Counted from the whole stretch's first letter, positions 33,001 to 45,000 are shown. The stretch is 63,938 bases of DNA, filler included, from an uncultured Ignavibacteriales bacterium (GCA_964611355.1; 3 parts of 3 records of this genome joined end to end with filler, not necessarily neighbours in it); one strand, 5' to 3'. Numbers are program-made.

Positions 33001-36000
33001 AAAGGGGAACCGTTCGCTTAAAACAAGTCATCTCTTCCCGCGTAAATCACAAGGTGAAGATTTCGTCGTTTTCCTCCCGGGGACCATCAATGATGACACC
33101 CATCTCGCATTGTACGTCGAGCCTCCCGCCATGCGGTATAGGTTTTTCAGAGGAATGGATACACTAAATATATCAGGTGCATATTATCCTGCGCATTTCT
33201 TATGTAATCAACTATTTTTTTGTTCTGCTGATTCTATGGTCGGGATATGCGTTATACAGCTACAAGATAAATATTGACCGATCTATATTACAAACCAACA
33301 AATCCGGGTTTTCCTCCAGGTTGTCCGCGATGCAAACCCCGACTAAATGACCGTCTGGACAGCTATATGCAATTCAATAAACGACAATAACTTATAGGCT
33401 AAATGATAGGCGTTGTACGGCGGAATAATTCCTCCCGATTTACAGGTTATTGAGGTGACGGTACTAATGAGGAATCATCATTACTACTTGCCGGCACAAT
33501 ACGGAACTATATTTATCCTGTTATAATTGTTCAATTTATATACAGCTCAAACTCTTAAGCCTTGATAAGCTTCGACCGAATAATCAGATAACAAGCGTGT
33601 TCACAAGGGGAGCATAACCGATGGAGCGCATATCCAAGGTTGCGCAGCATTTATGACCGACAATCCGTTCAGTTGAATCGTGAAACGCCACTTGCGGATC
33701 CAATCGAGCTTGATCGGTTACAGCCATCGTCTGTCAAAGACCAGTAACCAAAGGGTACGCGTCAACGAGAGGTCGGATATGACGGCATGTGTGGGAATAG
33801 GAGACACTTGATATTTCATAAACCTTCGAAAGGAGTCTGAAGATGAAACGAATTCATCTGCTGATCGCTTTTCTCCTGATGGCTTTTATCTGCTTTGCGG
33901 TAACTGCTACCGCGGCTGATAAGCCTTCAATTAAAATCAAACCGTACGGCTTTTTCAAGCTTGACGGCATGTACGATCAGAACGAAACCAACGGCAACGT
34001 GGCCAAATACGTCGGCCGTCAAAACGGGGATGACAGCGACGAGCAATTCAACATGACCCCGAAGCACACCCGGTTGGGCCTGAAAATGACCGGTGAGAAC
34101 ATTCGGGACGCCGCGGTAAACGGCAAAGTCGAAGTTGACTTCTACGGTTCCGATGGGCCGGAAAACGCCGCCCTCATCCGTCTGCGTCATGCCTACTTTA
34201 CCGTCCGATCGGCCGAATTTCAGCTTCTGGCTGGCCAGACCTGGGATCTAATCTCGCCACTTAATCCGTCGATGCTTAACGCCAGTCCGATTTTTGGCGC
34301 GGGAAACATAGGGATGCGGCGTCCGCAAGTAAGACTATCGTACACCGCCCAACCGAACAATCAAACTGACATTACACTTGCCGCCGGAATTTTCCGCAAT
34401 ATGGGCAATGACAACACCCCGACGCTTACCCTGTCTCTGGCTGATGGTGAAGACGCCACCGACGGTTCGGATGACGGCACCGACGCCGGAATTCCTTCAA
34501 TACAGGGTATGCTCGAGCTGCGTCACGAATTCAACCCCGGAACCTCACTTCAAGTGGGCGCTTCCGGCCTATGGGGTCAAATGAAGGCCGAAAGCCAACT
34601 GAGCACCAATACCGAGACCTATGAGAATTGGGGTGCGGTCGGTCATCTTAAGTTATCGCTGGCCTCAGGTTTTGCGATCATGGGTGAAGGCTTTACCGGC
34701 CGGAATCTTGGCAGTTATGCCGGCGGTATCTCGCAGGCAAGCACCCTGGATGGTGTCGATTGCGTCGGCGGCTGGGGATCGCTCCAGTTCCAACCTTCAG
34801 ACCAGGTGCAATTCAATGCCGGCGGCGGAATGGACGACCCGAAGGATGAAGACCTCAGCAATGGCGACAAGGGAAAGAACCAGTGCATCTTCGGCAATAT
34901 CAAATACAACGTTGTGCCGCTGGTAACCCTGGGATTGGAAGTCTCTCACTGGCGGACGGAGTATCTTGGTGACGCTGATCCGAGCGACAATCTCCGCGTC
35001 CAGACATCATTTATCCTGAACTTCTAAAATCAGGTTTCTGTCTGAGAATAGTTTTGGCCAATCACCGTGCCGGCCTTTCTACCGGCACGGTGATTTCGGC
35101 CTGATACGTCTTAATATTAGTACAATTACCCAATAAAAAGCCGGGCATTCTTCCCGAATGCCCGGCCAATTCGCTTCATGAGAATCTCAGGCCTTAGAAC
35201 TCCACCTTCACGGTAAAGAACTGGTTGGCGTCAAAGACTTCAGTATCCATCCAGGAATACTCGAAGGCGAGTTTGGTGCCGCCAAAATCATACTTGACGC
35301 CACCACCAACCGTGAAACCGTAAAGGTAGCTCTCCTGATCCGCGTAGTTATAGCCGACACGGATTGAGTACAGCCCGTCGTAAACATACTCGGCACCGCC
35401 CTGCCACACATCTTGGGAATAGTTGTTCGAGACGAAATTCCCGGTAATGGTGGCCAGGTTGGGACCCATATCATACGCGTTCCAGGCCATACCTGCGTTA
35501 AACGAGCTTGGCAGGTCGAATTTGAGAGCTTCCGGCGAAGCCTGGCGTTCGCCAAGCGTCCGTTCAAAGCCTTTGCCGCTGAACTTCATCTCCGGACCAT
35601 AATTTCTGATCGCCAGTCCGAGAGAAAAGCCCTGCCAGCCCGGGTCATAGATAAAGCCAACGTCAAATGCTACACCGGTCGCCGACACTTCGAAGATTTT
35701 TTCGTGTATGAACTTACCGGTCACGCCAAACGACACCCGGTTGGTCATAATCCGCGAATATGCCACCGATATGACCGAAAGAGTCGGACTGAATATGCGA
35801 CCCGTTCCGTCCGGATACTCGTTGGTGGTTTCTTCCATGTCGCCGATGGAGATAATCTTGGCCGACGCCGCAATAGTACCGAAATCTTCGATACGGGTGG
35901 CAACTCCGGCGAAATTGACGTCGATATCAGCCAAGTACGGCTGATGCGAAAACATCGCCTCGGTACCGGCCAGGCTGGCCAGTCCGGCCGGATTCCAGTA

Positions 36001-42000: not shown

Positions 42001-45000
42001 CCCTGGATACTCACCGATACGCCGACGAGGGCCTCCCCGGTTTTGGCGTCGACCACCGTACCGGTAATCTCACCGGTAACTGCGCCAAAAACCGGTCCGG
42101 CAAGCAGGCATGCCATTAGGCACGCTACTATAAAGACTTTTTGTTTCATGCTGTGATTTTCCTCCTTTGTCCTTGGTATTGACAAGTTAATTCCCTTTAC
42201 TTTCACGTTAACTTTCTTCCCATAAGCACACTCCTTTTATTTTAGTTATCCTATGCGCTCCTTCCTATATTTGGATATTATCTTTTCAGGCTGTTTTTCC
42301 AATTCCCTTTGTGTAACGCCTATGGATACACTACTCCTTTGCACCAAAAACTCACTATAAATGTATTGTATGTCAATTAAAAAATTTTTAAAAAACAAGG
42401 ACGGAACAACGTTTGGTCGACCACCCTCGGCAAGACCGCAGGCAACTTCCGGTAAAACGCAAACCCCGGTTATTTATTCACATAACATCCGTCGTTTTGC
42501 GCTATAGAAACTTACCGGCAGGCACCGAAGAAACCAGGAAAGAAATAGATCGTTTAGCCTGTGCCATTGCCGGAAACCCGGAGCTTTATGATAATGGCAT
42601 TAGAAGCGATTTTGGATACATCGGCGATACCGGCGCCATGACGCCAACCGCGACGCAACCCCGGATATAATCCTTTCACCCGATCTCCGGTAATCTGACC
42701 GGGCTTGATTCCTTCCGTTTGAATTGCTATTTTCCATCTCAGTATAGCTTCTCTATGACCATAGATTCGGGCGGCGGGCCGTATATTGCCGTTATTGAAA
42801 AGGGATAGGACATAATCGCAATGAACGAGATAAAGTACAAGCCTATCGGAATAATTCATACTCCTTTTGCCGGACCGGCAGGAACCCCGATTCAGCCCAA
42901 ACGCGGGAAAGGAACAAAAGGCACGATTGAGCTTTTTCCGGAATATGCCGAAGGCCTCGACGATCTGGACGGGTTTTCACATATAATCCTTATCTATCAT
43001 TTTCACCGTTCGGAAGGATATCAATTAAAAGTAACTCCTTTCCTCGACGACACCCCGCGCGGGCTGTTTGCCACCCGTGCTCCTCGAAGACCCAACCGGA
43101 TCGGCCTTTCGGTGGTCAGGTTGAACAAGATCGAAGGCGCGACGCTTCATATCGAAGATATCGATATTCTGGACGGCACCCCGCTGCTGGATATAAAGCC
43201 TTATGTTACCGTTTTCGACGAAGTTATTGATTTTCGTATCGGCTGGCTGACCGGCAAGGTTAAACGCGCGGAAAACAAAGACGCCGACGACCGGTTCAGG
43301 CGTTGAGCGGTATAATCGCGCAGCAAGCTGTGAGCCACCTGTCAATCAGGCATCCGTGATAGTTATCCACAATTCCAGACGTTGAAAATATCGCGTATCC
43401 TGATACCGGTCATGCGGATACAGCGAAATGGGTTTGTTTTGCCATATTTAAAAGTATGCGCTACATATCTTGTGGTAATTACGAAAGGCGGCAGGCCTGA
43501 TAATGATCTGGAAACTGTTTTTTGAACAGCCAAAAGTCCTCCATTGGAAAACGTATTCATTAACGGAGACAGATTATGAAACAGCAGGAAGAATGTATTG
43601 TTGTTGGTGAAGAAGCGACGACTTTCAGCGTTATAATCCCACGGCAAGCCGTCGGCCACCGGTCAGGCGGCAAAGATCGGCTTCACCGTTCTCTATCGCT
43701 CAATCTTTGATACCATCACCGAACTGATCCAGGGTGAGAACTTCGGCGACAGTATCAAAACTATGAACCGCTATCTCAAAGTCGATCTGCTGATAATCGA
43801 TGACATGGGCATTAAGAAGCTGCCCAAGCAGTCCGGGGAATACCTCTTTGAGATCATCATGCGCCGACACGAAATACGCTCCACCATCATGACTTCCAAC
43901 CGACCACTGGAAGAATGGGGCAAACTGATTGGCGACGTGCCGACTGCGACCGCTATCCTGGATCGCATTCTGCACCGGGCTGAGATCATTCAGATTACAG
44001 GAAAAAGCTACCGGCTCAAAGATTGAGCTTGCCAAAAGGAGAAAAAGATATCATAATTAAGATACCAAACAGAGAAACTGACCGGTTTTAACCCGACCCG
44101 CAATGGACGGTTTTAACCCGACCCGTGACAGGAATTAGACTGATGGAATTTTTTAATAAATTAAAAAAAATGAGAATAATGCTGATTGACGACGACGAGT
44201 GGATAAGGAGTTCGATGACTATTTTCCTCGAAAGTGAGGGGTGTCAACTTACTGCAATGGAAACGGCCGAAAAGGCTTTGAGTGAATTAGAAATTAAGCC
44301 TTATGACATCATAATCACCGATTATAAGTTACCCGGCATTAGTGGATTAGAATTCTTGGGACGAATTCAACCTCTTTATTCAGAATGTCATAAGGTTTTA
44401 ATAACCGCCTTTGGAAATGACAATATCATATCCAAAGCGCTCCAGCTGGGAGTGGAGAAAGTTATCCAAAAACCATTCACAACTGAGACTATTGAAAAAA
44501 CACTGGCTTACCTGATAGACAAAAATGAAAAGGAAAATGCAAATTAAAAAGGTCAGAACAAAAACAAATTCGATATGGAATCTGATTATATAAAGGAGGT
44601 TTATAATGTCAGAATCTGGCGGGTATTTGGTCGATGTTGGCATGCAAAGTCTGCCATTTCCGATGAAAGTTCCATCAAGGGACAATCCTGATGGTCAACG
44701 CACTATTGCAAATATATCTGTTCATGCACGCATAATGCAGGAATTTGAGGCCCAATGGATAGACAAGTTCATACAAATCATACATCAACATAGAGATAGT
44801 ATTGGTCCCGCCACGCTGAAAAAGAACATTGCTGATTATCAAGAAGTATTTGAAGCGTCCTCGGTTCGGATCGATTTTGAATATCCATTCTTTGTGGAGA
44901 AATTAACGCCTGTATCAAAACAAAAATGTCTTGTCAAATACAAATGCGTTTATTCTGCAAAACTACCTTCGATTAATAATCAGCCCAAAATTATCTTTAA

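Follow-up and report, generated by a model that had tools for sequence, protein, structure and literature searches.

Do three adjacent genes of an uncultured Ignavibacteriales bacterium (GCA_964611355.1), encoding a TonB-dependent receptor, a large secreted protein and a PorV-like barrel, build one outer-membrane machine? The genes lie in a window of 63,938 nucleotides, the whole stretch of DNA that was analyzed, which consists of three contigs joined by runs of N; the contig with the trio, C35, occupies positions 24562-48695. The analysis treated the carrier as a member of the uncultured Zixibacteria from sediment. An earlier note on this DNA had read the trio as a self-contained capture-and-import unit, a counterpart of SusC/SusD loci based on type IX secretion (T9SS), with the barrel as a private shuttle or anchor for its neighbor.

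Organization of the locus

By ORF calling, the trio comprises three ORFs on the minus strand (35194-42206 of the window), in the order that had been claimed and with the contig offset correct. The first gene encodes P0001, an Oar-subclass TonB-dependent receptor (39276..42206; 976 aa in the longest ORF). It is followed after 7 bp by the gene for a secreted multidomain surface protein (P0002; 36203..39268; 1021 aa, with a Sec signal peptide) and, after a further gap of 19 bp, by the gene for a 14-stranded barrel of the PorV/PorQ family (P0003; 35194..36183; 329 aa), which belongs to a receptor-linked subfamily. The earlier note had ended the locus at 42149, which corresponds to an ATG at residue 20 of the longest receptor ORF. 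This ATG opens a signal peptide and is the likelier start.

Directly 3' of the barrel gene lies a hairpin resembling an intrinsic terminator (35139..35167, minus strand), with 12 pairs, 8 of them G-C, followed by a T run. Three other terminator-like sites on the minus strand within 35194-42206 are much weaker (stems of 5 to 9 pairs, 3 G-C). Since the terminator scan gave 10 sites overall against 9.0 expected, only the strength and the position of this hairpin count. Likewise, the promoter scan gave 11 sites against 9.2 expected, and the weak promoter-like site 5' of the receptor gene (42365..42392, minus strand, 9 of 12 matches) is thus a lead only. No riboswitch was found. The best explanation is that the receptor, surface protein and barrel genes form one operon.

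Conservation of the gene set

Related loci, labeled Zixibacteria, Eisenbacteria, Latescibacterota and others, numbered 79, and 58 of them hold a full-length relative of P0002. Among the 53 full-length loci with room on both sides, 52 have the receptor as the immediate upstream neighbor and the barrel as the immediate downstream one, indicating that the trio is not a local accident; the receptor is present in the 53rd locus (L027), too, where its alignment stops 448 bp upstream. Of 55 loci with enough sequence on the receptor side, 54 have a receptor orthologue as the upstream neighbor of the middle gene. When 43 loci of at least 17 kb were compared together with the window, only the three trio families recurred (in 41, 35 and 35 loci), and the next family was found in 6. 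The trio is without a conserved glycoside hydrolase, regulator or TonB/ExbBD neighbor in these 44 loci. Neither the neighborhoods nor the riboswitch search hinted at one substrate in particular. As a gene set, the self-contained unit of the earlier note is therefore well borne out.

The receptor

The Oar subclass is defined by a PF13620/PF13715 N-terminal extension ahead of the plug, according to excerpts of a published account (PMC6434023). In P0001, Pfam placed this extension at residues 47-133 (CarboxypepD_reg, PF13620, 60.6 bits; CarbopepD_reg_2, PF13715, 68.1 bits), the plug (PF07715, 40.2 bits) at residues 145-257 and the barrel (PF00593, 94.4 bits) at residues 393-857. Plug and barrel are both complete, the barrel being of the 22-strand kind. 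A candidate TonB-box stretch of small and hydrophobic residues, read from the sequence, lies at about residues 132-140. The SusC/RagA model TIGR04056 gave 66.8 bits against a cutoff of 368.25, with a match to the extension and plug only, and P0001 thus fails the model of that family. The receptors of two paralogous cassettes on contigs C72 and C11 (see below) scored 52 and 69.3 bits, respectively, also under the cutoff.

Domains of the surface protein

The middle protein had been described as lacking any Pfam family, and this holds except for a weak T9SS-tail match. Pfam and NCBIfam gave only FlgD_ig (27.3 bits, cutoff 27) and TIGR04183 for T9SS type A sorting, which at 17.1 bits fails its cutoff of 23. 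P0002 has at least 376 relatives, mostly labeled Zixibacteria. It begins with the Sec signal peptide, which is followed by a supersandwich and an Fn3-like domain; next come a variable, beta-rich middle and the T9SS-type C-terminal domain, and a short conserved tail ends the chain (AF2 model, mean pLDDT 78.2).

The N-terminal beta-supersandwich domain (residues 40-441; 37946..39151, minus strand) belongs to a family without a Pfam model and was recognized by structure matches, to 9ju0 (Z 19.1, rmsd 3.3, 253 aligned), to the glucoamylase N-domain 1lf6 (Z 18.6, rmsd 3.0, 230 aligned) and to the N-domains of GH94, GH65 and GH116 (Z 15-17.5), all at 6-15% identity. The domain thus has the galactose-mutarotase-like supersandwich fold of glycoside hydrolases and phosphorylases, and P0002 has no attached catalytic (alpha/alpha)6 domain. 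The modeled fold supports an assignment to a type typical of carbohydrate-active enzymes, and a carbohydrate role is putative. Sequence relatives of the domain amount to 8579 cluster representatives at E <= 0.001, and elsewhere it occurs together with dockerin, cohesin, T9SS tail, PKD, beta-helix, BNR, FG-GAP and BACON domains. The supersandwich fold also occurs in non-carbohydrate proteins, such as the periplasmic domain of YidC (Z 13 to the N-domain).

The Fn3-like beta-sandwich (residues 445-580; 37529..37936, minus strand) was assigned from predicted secondary structure and from fibronectin-III and titin matches, which were weak in one search (E 0.27); its conservation is 0.61. The variable beta-rich region (residues 581-905; 36554..37528, minus strand) is the least conserved part of P0002, at 0.42. 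The N-domain reaches 0.71, and the T9SS-type C-terminal domain (residues 911-1013; 36230..36538, minus strand) has the highest value, 0.75.

The C-terminal domain has the Ig-like fold of known sorting domains and matches the C-terminal domain of PorZ (5m11) with a Z of 12.0, an rmsd of 2.1 and 28% identity over 93 aligned residues. Among NCBIfam models, PorZ and PorU were the best matches of the C terminus. FlgD_ig matched only 15 of 30 members of the P0002 family, and PF18962 (Por_Secre_tail, cutoff 27) did not match P0002 and matched one of the 30 members at E 0.02. The domain is followed by a conserved extension of eight residues (1014-1021; 36206..36229, minus strand) with a near-invariant final Tyr; E1016, V1017 and Y1021 are kept in at least 90% of the alignment rows. 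In the model, this extension is a short helix of low confidence, and residues 1012-1015 are in the predicted interface with the barrel.

The barrel and predicted docking of the tail

P0003 matched the PorV/PorQ family model NF033709 with 183.1 bits (cutoff 90) and remained under the equivalog cutoffs for PorV (NF033710, 76.7 against 250 bits) and PorQ (NF033711, 102.1 against 220 bits). Its profile matched PorV of F. johnsoniae (6h3i_F) at E 8e-21, and its model superimposed on the same chain with a Z of 33.2 and an rmsd of 3.2 (276 aligned, 23% identity).

In complex predictions, the tail of P0002 docked on this barrel with ipSAE values of 0.87, 0.87 and 0.86, whereas the best of three controls reached 0.01; partner pLDDT was at least 75, and the runs shared at least 77% of contacts. 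Of 157 solved complexes, 116 passed the threshold applied, as did 2 of 215 mismatched pairs. The pairing of cargo and barrel suggested earlier thus gains a predicted contact, although PorV has been solved with substrates (6h3i, 8gl6 and others), and the high ipSAE may reflect likeness to those structures rather than private pairing. Conservation is higher inside the interface than outside it, both in the barrel (0.70 against 0.58, a value matched in 3 of 5000 permutations) and in the tail (0.80 against 0.66; 10 of 5000), in a test that depends on the alignment-driven model.

Paralogous cassettes

The gene orders reported for the C72 and C11 loci were found, and the distant paralogy of the C35 and C72 middle proteins was reproduced (23% identity over 830 aa, E 7e-30). 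The 733-aa protein of C11 is unrelated to both and, as had been observed, has no tail; it carries a lipoprotein signal instead. Both cassette types are kept elsewhere. Of 29 loci of the C72 type, all have the receptor and 28 the barrel; among 29 loci of the C11 type, the barrel occurs in 28 and the end of the receptor in 27.

The three cassette receptors are mutual nearest paralogues, and so are the three cassette barrels, which split from the seven other PorV-like genes of the genome with 95% SH-aLRT. Because a lipoprotein accompanies receptor and barrel in the C11-type cassette, the constant partner of the receptor-linked barrels is the receptor and not a tail-bearing cargo. For the same reason, the C11-type cassette having no tail-bearing protein, tail anchoring is not the barrel's sole role.

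The genome has 10 PorV-family genes, distributed over 9 loci; nine of the genes pass the cutoff. FlgD_ig-type tail matches number 39. Six PorV-family genes, at five loci, adjoin a tail-bearing gene, where the earlier note had counted six of nine. Chance adjacency would be expected at about 0.3 of the 9 loci, given about 2,400 genes (estimated from 2.57 Mb).

Fixed anchor or other readings

The genome encodes SprA (555.7 bits for the frame, over the cutoff) and PorU (625.2 bits, cutoff 420). Of 151 genomes sampled across the phylum (Zixibacteria), 150 have SprA. The best candidates for PorV proper and PorQ proper are genes on C10 (193 bits, under the cutoff of 250) and C44 (162 bits, under 220), respectively. 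With PorU, SprA and a canonical-type PorV present, the cassette barrel might be a private transient shuttle from SprA to PorU, after which the tail would be cleaved, the protein attached to lipopolysaccharide or released, and the freed product taken up by the receptor. The predicted binding of the tail to a PorV-family barrel is consistent with this, as is the description of PorV as a shuttle in excerpts of a 2023 review (PMC10202324). Nevertheless, we consider such a shuttle unlikely. The tail is the best-conserved part of P0002 across phyla, which is odd for a discarded signal and is the reason why a shuttle fits worse than a fixed anchor. The tail also resembles those of PorZ and PorU, which, according to the excerpts, stay bound to PorQ and PorV, respectively. 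Moreover, a shuttle would not require a co-encoded receptor, yet all three paralogous cassettes have one, and that of C11 bears a lipoprotein without a tail. With retention of the tail presumed, a fixed anchor fits the PorV-like barrel better, and of the "private shuttle or anchor" of the earlier note we prefer the anchor.

The barrel could instead hold an adhesin or envelope layer, with the receptor merely co-regulated or a second anchor and without import. The beta-sandwich and Fn3-like modules of P0002 are in line with such a surface structure, no catalytic family or metabolic neighbors were found, and the P0002 family is widespread (133 of 151 genomes of the phylum [Zixibacteria] at E <= 1e-20). 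This is improbable, however, as plug and barrel of the receptor are both complete and the receptor is kept beside the other two genes in 54 of 55 loci, and the co-duplication of receptor and barrel argues for joint function.

The barrel model also matched FadL and TodX (Z 27-29), TodX appeared in the profile search, and Pfam gave weak Toluene_X matches, which would suit a channel of the FadL type that carries a hydrophobic or amphipathic compound alongside the receptor, P0002 only bringing the substrate near. PorV is clearly the better match, by both Z and E value, and the barrel's conserved N-terminal segment, residues 25-38, sits in the predicted tail interface; a channel of this type is therefore more doubtful still. 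Export of P0002 or its product by the receptor, in the manner of Oar of Myxococcus xanthus, is very improbable: although the receptor shares the PF13620 extension that defines the Oar subclass and no match to GldL (TIGR03513) or GldM (TIGR03517) was detected in this 96%-complete genome (nor in the control genomes), M. xanthus is without T9SS according to excerpts of PMC6434023, whereas SprA, PorU, PorV-type genes and about 39 tail-bearing proteins are present here, P0002 carries a T9SS-type tail, and a plugged 22-stranded barrel would be small for a folded 1000-aa protein.

Proposed function

From the order and conservation of the genes, the folds and the predicted contact of tail and barrel, we tentatively propose that the trio builds a three-part outer-membrane machine of an import receptor, a surface protein retained by its tail and a platform barrel that may contact the receptor. 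The 1021-aa protein would cross the inner membrane through Sec and the outer membrane through the type IX translocon, for which SprA and PorU are encoded. Its C-terminal domain would be retained and would keep the protein at the surface, bound to the outer side of its dedicated PorV-like barrel, in the way in which PorQ holds PorZ and PorV holds PorU. The barrel would thus be a fixed attachment platform belonging to the transporter. The supersandwich domain would bind a substrate outside the cell, most probably a glycan, perhaps cut it, and hand it to the Oar-type receptor, which would act as an energized import channel.

Cargo-specific PorV paralogues, presented in the earlier note as new, have already been proposed in PMC10202324, whose excerpts also include the proposal that cognate PorV-like barrels shield the tail from cleavage. 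As to the arrangement itself, a literature search for the coupling of a PorV-like barrel with a TonB-dependent receptor found none in print. If our reading is true, the trio looks like an undescribed way to build a nutrient-capture machine.

Comparison with known systems

In the SusC/SusD systems and "utilisomes" of Bacteroidota, a TonB-dependent transporter works with surface lipoproteins that bind and cut glycans. The trio resembles them in that a TonB-dependent barrel with a carboxypeptidase-regulatory-like N-terminal extension is encoded beside large surface proteins, and the C11 cassette uses a lipoprotein. It differs in that no neighbor matches the SusD family, a T9SS-type tail replaces the lipid anchor (in C35), a PorV-family barrel is constant and no hydrolase or regulator is linked. 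With no SusD, no fourth family in more than 6 of the 44 loci and a receptor that fails TIGR04056, the trio is not a SusC/SusD polysaccharide utilization locus, and the proposed counterpart does not hold as membership.

In BamA-BamG-BamH of the Bacteroidota BAM complex, BamA bears the FadL-like BamG, which in turn holds lipoproteins at the surface. The model of P0003 matched BamG chains with a Z of 26-27, PorV being closer (33.2), and the putative partner here is a TonB-dependent receptor, not BamA. M. xanthus requires Oar to secrete the protease PopC. The cassette receptor shares with Oar the order of CarboxypepD_reg extension, plug and barrel, as far as excerpts of PMC6434023 describe it, and Oar is linked there to protein secretion in an organism without T9SS.

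Type-B cargo genes such as SprB cluster with their cognate PorP/SprF barrels, which are proposed anchors according to excerpts of PMC10202324. The trio differs by its barrel family (TIGR03519 gave 18.8 bits for the C72 barrel), by an FlgD_ig, type-A-like tail and by the receptor within the unit. The PorQ-PorZ and PorV-PorU pairs of the type IX attachment complex of Porphyromonas gingivalis, in which a PorV/PorQ barrel holds a surface protein by an uncleaved tail (excerpts of PMC10202324), are alike in that the tail here is nearest those of PorZ and PorU and that the barrel's PorQ score exceeds its PorV score. The trio differs from these pairs in failing the PorQ, PorV and PorZ equivalog cutoffs and in lacking PorZ-like propellers, and it has its own barrel clade and a co-encoded receptor.

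Organization of the predicted C35 operon

The window consists of three contigs linked by runs of N, of which contig C35 occupies positions 24562-48695. The predicted operon on contig C35 comprises three genes on the minus strand. P0001 (39276-42206) encodes a TonB-dependent receptor with a CarboxypepD_reg extension, a plug and a barrel. P0002 (36203-39268) encodes a secreted surface protein with a Sec signal peptide, whose family matches are confined to the last 90 residues, and P0003 (35194-36183) encodes a barrel of the PorV/PorQ family (183 bits against a cut-off of 90). The intergenic gaps are 7 and 19 bp. 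A hairpin of 12 pairs with a T run lies directly after P0003 and is far stronger than the terminator-like sites that the minus strand has within the genes; overall, promoter-like (11 sites, 9.2 expected) and terminator-like sites (10 sites, 9.0 expected) occurred at background level. The flanking genes, which encode a DcaP-like porin, TrmO, a 2-thiouracil desulfurase family protein and a hybrid kinase, are mutually unrelated. The gene for the DcaP-like outer-membrane protein (33843-35027, plus strand) converges on the operon end and is not kept beside the trio elsewhere.

The genome, G000, is an assembly of 2.57 Mb in 110 contigs, rated 96% complete, and the relatives of its proteins carry the label Zixibacteria. 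The DNA data sets containing the stretch were salt-marsh and sediment metagenomes, and no RNA data set was among those listed as containing it. An Rfam search across the whole of contig C35 gave no match at E ≤ 0.1 and thus no riboswitch clue to the substrate.

Judged by its sequence, P0001 has the domain order of the Oar subclass, as that architecture is defined in PMC6434023. It fails the SusC/RagA model (66.8 versus 368 bits). There are six plug-bearing receptors in G000, three of which sit in cassettes on contigs C35, C72 and C11, and these three are mutually nearest paralogues within the genome.

Conservation of the C35-type trio

The search with P0002, using one genome per species, yielded 540 relatives. 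The top 79 loci were retained, every one of them from a metagenome bin. A full-length P0002 relative was found by tblastn in 58 of these 79. Where there was room on both sides, a receptor orthologue lay directly upstream and a barrel orthologue directly downstream in 52 of 53 loci; the remaining one, L027, also has the receptor, the alignment of which stops 448 bp upstream. The remaining 21 of the 79 loci are contig-end cuts or encode proteins that share only the N-terminal 425 to 455 residues and have neither neighbour. When open reading frames were clustered across the window and 43 loci of at least 17 kb, three families recurred (41, 35 and 35 loci), and the next reached 6. The description of the trio as a self-contained unit, made in the earlier note, is therefore borne out. 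The P0002 profile matched 133 of 151 sampled genomes of the phylum at E ≤ 1e-20, a threshold that also admits paralogues.

The cassettes on contigs C72 and C11

The gene maps agree with the orders that the earlier note had given for two further loci. The C72 cassette runs from a receptor through an 875-aa protein and a PorV-like gene to a BNR protein with a clear T9SS tail, and the C11 cassette consists of a receptor, a PorV-like gene and a 733-aa protein. That the C72 875-aa protein and P0002 are distant paralogues, as the note had also held, was confirmed (23% over 830 aa, E = 7e-30), and the C-terminus of the C72 protein again matches PorZ best. The C11 733-aa protein is unrelated to either. 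It starts with a hydrophobic stretch ending in Gly-Cys, the Cys being present by eye at that position in 21 of 22 C11-type orthologues (13 of 22 under a stricter pattern), and it is read from these features as a putative lipoprotein. The C11 cassette (L003, 6560-13253, minus strand; relatives L089-L117) thus contains a receptor, a PorV-like barrel and a probable lipoprotein without a family match.

Of 101 genomes sampled from the phylum, 78 matched the C72-type protein and 96 the C11-type putative lipoprotein. Around the best 29 matches to the C72-type protein, the receptor was present in all 29 and the barrel in 28, the missing one being a contig-end cut; the flank beyond the barrel in these relatives, where the BNR gene would lie, was about 0.5 kb. 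Among the best 29 C11-type matches, the barrel lay directly upstream of the lipoprotein gene in 28 and the receptor's end was found in 27. One C11-type miss is a second copy within one genome.

A receptor-linked branch of the PorV family

P0003 reaches neither the cut-off for PorV proper nor that for PorQ proper. The best fold match of its model (pLDDT 79.7) was Flavobacterium johnsoniae PorV (6h3i_F; Z 33.2, rmsd 3.2, 276 residues aligned), which was also the sole strong solved relative by sequence profile (E = 8e-21). The model also matched FadL-type channels (Z 27-29) and, in three BAM structures, the BamG chains (Z 26-27).

There are 10 PorV-family genes at 9 loci in G000. The three receptor-linked barrels share 34-37% identity with one another and at most 27% with the remaining members. 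In a tree of 36 hand-picked sequences, including 12 of 35 type A (C35-type) and 12 of 28 type B (C11-type) cassette barrels, a branch with 95% SH-aLRT support separated the receptor-linked barrels from the rest. Their side held 13 type A barrels, 13 type B barrels, the C72 barrel and an additional gene from Latescibacterota (L071, 16721-17737), and the opposite side held the seven other paralogues of G000, including PorV-type, PorQ-type and PorV2-type genes. The tree came from a quick, short search with SH-aLRT as its only support measure, no bootstrap and a midpoint root, and its two flagged long-branch joins are among the non-receptor (outgroup) paralogues. The extra Latescibacterota gene is a second PorV-like gene, a few kilobases downstream of the trio in that chromosome.

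Further members of the family lie at other loci of G000. The most PorV-like gene (L002 on contig C10, 8452-11388, plus strand; NF033710, 193 bits) is an open frame of 978 aa in which PorV-family positions 2-41 and 45-325 are parted by about 640 residues with weak Reg_prop and PorZ-like matches; by these matches, it could be a PorV barrel with an inserted PorZ-like propeller. It is flanked by PorU (625 bits) and by an M6-like inactivated metalloprotease with a T9SS tail. Contig C9 (L006, 11400-13220, plus strand) encodes a 606-aa fusion of a PorV-family barrel with a C-terminal TPR region, directly after a 1457-aa protein whose C-terminus matches the T9SS tails of PorU and M6-like proteins. A tandem pair (304 and 327 aa) on contig C11 (L007, 9509-13925, minus strand) follows an 840-aa BNR/sortilin-like protein with a T9SS tail and has no receptor nearby.

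Export and tail of the surface protein

Export of P0002 by the type IX route is plausible because SprA and PorU are present in G000 and SprA was detected in 150 of the 151 genomes sampled across the phylum. The GldL and GldM family models found nothing in G000 and gave no match in the control genomes either; the type IX system of this lineage may use a different motor, or these models may be too narrow. SprA, PorU and about 39 tail-bearing proteins stand in G000 beside these null searches.

The P0002 tail is matched weakly by family models, with 27.3 bits for FlgD_ig (cut-off 27) and 17.1 bits for TIGR04183 (cut-off 23). Among the 39 FlgD_ig-type tails of G000, none that passes the cut-off scores lower than the tails of P0002 (28.7 bits in this comparison) and PorU (28.3 bits). 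The best NCBIfam matches of the C-terminal region were the tails of PorZ and PorU. In the structure model (mean pLDDT 78.2), residues 911-1013 are predicted to resemble the PorZ C-terminal domain 5m11 (Z 12.0, rmsd 2.1, 93 residues aligned, 28% identity). Across 30 orthologues, conservation was highest in this tail (0.75), followed by the N-terminal domain (0.71), the Fn3-like segment (0.61) and the middle (0.42).

Complex prediction with mature P0003 and P0002 residues 905-1021, each with its alignment, gave scores of 0.87, 0.87 and 0.86, and the best of three controls scored 0.01. Partner pLDDT did not fall below 75, and at least 77% of contacts were common to the runs. The mark used by the tool is reached by 116 of 157 solved complexes and by 2 of 215 mismatched pairs. 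Since solved PorV-substrate complexes exist, the pass may mirror likeness to them; the barrel tried was the tail's own, one of ten in G000, and the score does not speak to a preference among these. The predicted interface would join the conserved N-terminal segment of the barrel (residues 25-38) to the Pro-Asn-Pro motif and last strands of the tail. In both partners, conservation was higher at predicted interface residues than elsewhere (3 of 5000 permutations for the barrel and 10 for the tail), in a test that is not independent of the alignment-driven model.

The N-terminal domain

Because Foldseek results for the whole P0002 model were swamped by multi-Ig proteins, folds were taken from a domain-wise VIA search. 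Residues 40-441 (37946-39151) are predicted to form a beta-supersandwich, best matched by the N-terminal domains of dextran dextrinase (9ju0; Z 19.1, rmsd 3.3, 253 aligned) and a bacterial glucoamylase (1lf6; Z 18.6, rmsd 3.0, 230 aligned). The N-domains of GH94, GH65 and GH116 enzymes followed at Z 15-17.5, and the YidC periplasmic domain was also matched (Z 13). Against solved structures, the P0002 sequence profile gave one match only, to titin Fn3 (E = 0.27).

At E ≤ 0.001 a profile of this domain matched 8579 cluster representatives, 3307 of which passed E ≤ 1e-30. Neither Pfam nor NCBIfam was found to have a model for the family, and an ESM Atlas query returned unnamed clusters only. In a Pfam scan of 42 proteins from the 150 matches listed, the domain itself matched no family, and 9 proteins were wholly without a match. 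Its partners included T9SS tails (FlgD_ig or Por_Secre_tail) in 23 proteins, dockerin in 8 and ExbD in one, along with cohesin, PKD, beta-helix/NosD/DUF1565, BNR, FG-GAP, BACON and Ig domains; none of the 42 had a known catalytic domain. Dockerin also occurred in 7 of 13 scanned relatives that share only this domain and lie near the first loci. The domain was always N-terminal, in secreted, surface-anchored or dockerin-bearing proteins. Among the relatives (P0125-P0270), some have an insertion of 300-400 residues that splits it into two matched stretches. Such partner domains are those of extracellular, polysaccharide-associated proteins, which is suggestive of the domain's role and not proof of it. 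With modest confidence, a glycan is favoured as the substrate of P0002 because of the supersandwich fold and these partner domains.

A receptor with its own PorV-like barrel

In three paralogous forms, a PorV-family barrel always accompanies the receptor, and in the proposed mechanism it would hold a large surface protein. This partner carries a PorZ-like tail in two forms (C35 and C72) and is a putative lipoprotein in the third (C11). The earlier note had read the PorV paralogue as a private shuttle or anchor; the data fit a fixed attachment platform, the anchor half of that reading, better than they fit a shuttle. Two other readings were rejected: a classical polysaccharide utilisation locus, there being no linked enzymes, and a vitamin B12-type or thiamine-type uptake unit, no riboswitch having been found on contig C35.

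Our tentative proposal, which we consider possible rather than probable, is that Zixibacteria, Eisenbacteria, Latescibacterota and related uncultured lineages use a dedicated PorV/PorQ branch as a permanent subunit of a TonB-dependent transporter. A large capture protein would be held over the receptor by the barrel lying against it, through a type IX tail that stays uncleaved or, in one of the cassette types, together with a lipoprotein. Each component is of a known kind, and the novelty appears to lie in their combination. The literature searched, subscription journals excepted, yielded nothing on the linkage of PorV-like genes with TonB-dependent receptors and nothing on a T9SS in Zixibacteria.

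To our knowledge, little is known of how capture proteins are placed over TonB-dependent importers outside Bacteroidota, or of why genomes carry many PorV-like barrels, and the phyla that bear the unit are, as far as we know, abundant in sediments and without cultured members. The unit would be one concrete answer to both gaps, in three conserved forms and several phyla. It defines a testable three-protein complex, identifies a receptor-linked branch of the PorV family and brings to light a very large domain family with no description in any database. If the proposal is true, a general role of PorV-like barrels would be to hold surface proteins, not to shuttle them, and the 400-residue N-terminal domain would be a new glycan-binding or glycan-cutting module. 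There would also be a third way to give an outer-membrane importer a surface partner, beside SusD-type and Slam-dependent lipoproteins.

PMC10202324 describes a PorU tail that stays bound to PorV and a PorZ tail that stays bound to PorQ, type-B cargo genes that cluster with cognate PorP/SprF barrels, and cognate PorV-like barrels that may shield tails from cleavage. If the P0002 tail is truly retained, the PorZ-PorQ principle would extend from the secretion machine to ordinary working proteins. As in the PorU-PorV and PorZ-PorQ pairs described there, a barrel would hold a retained tail, but the present unit adds a TonB-dependent receptor.
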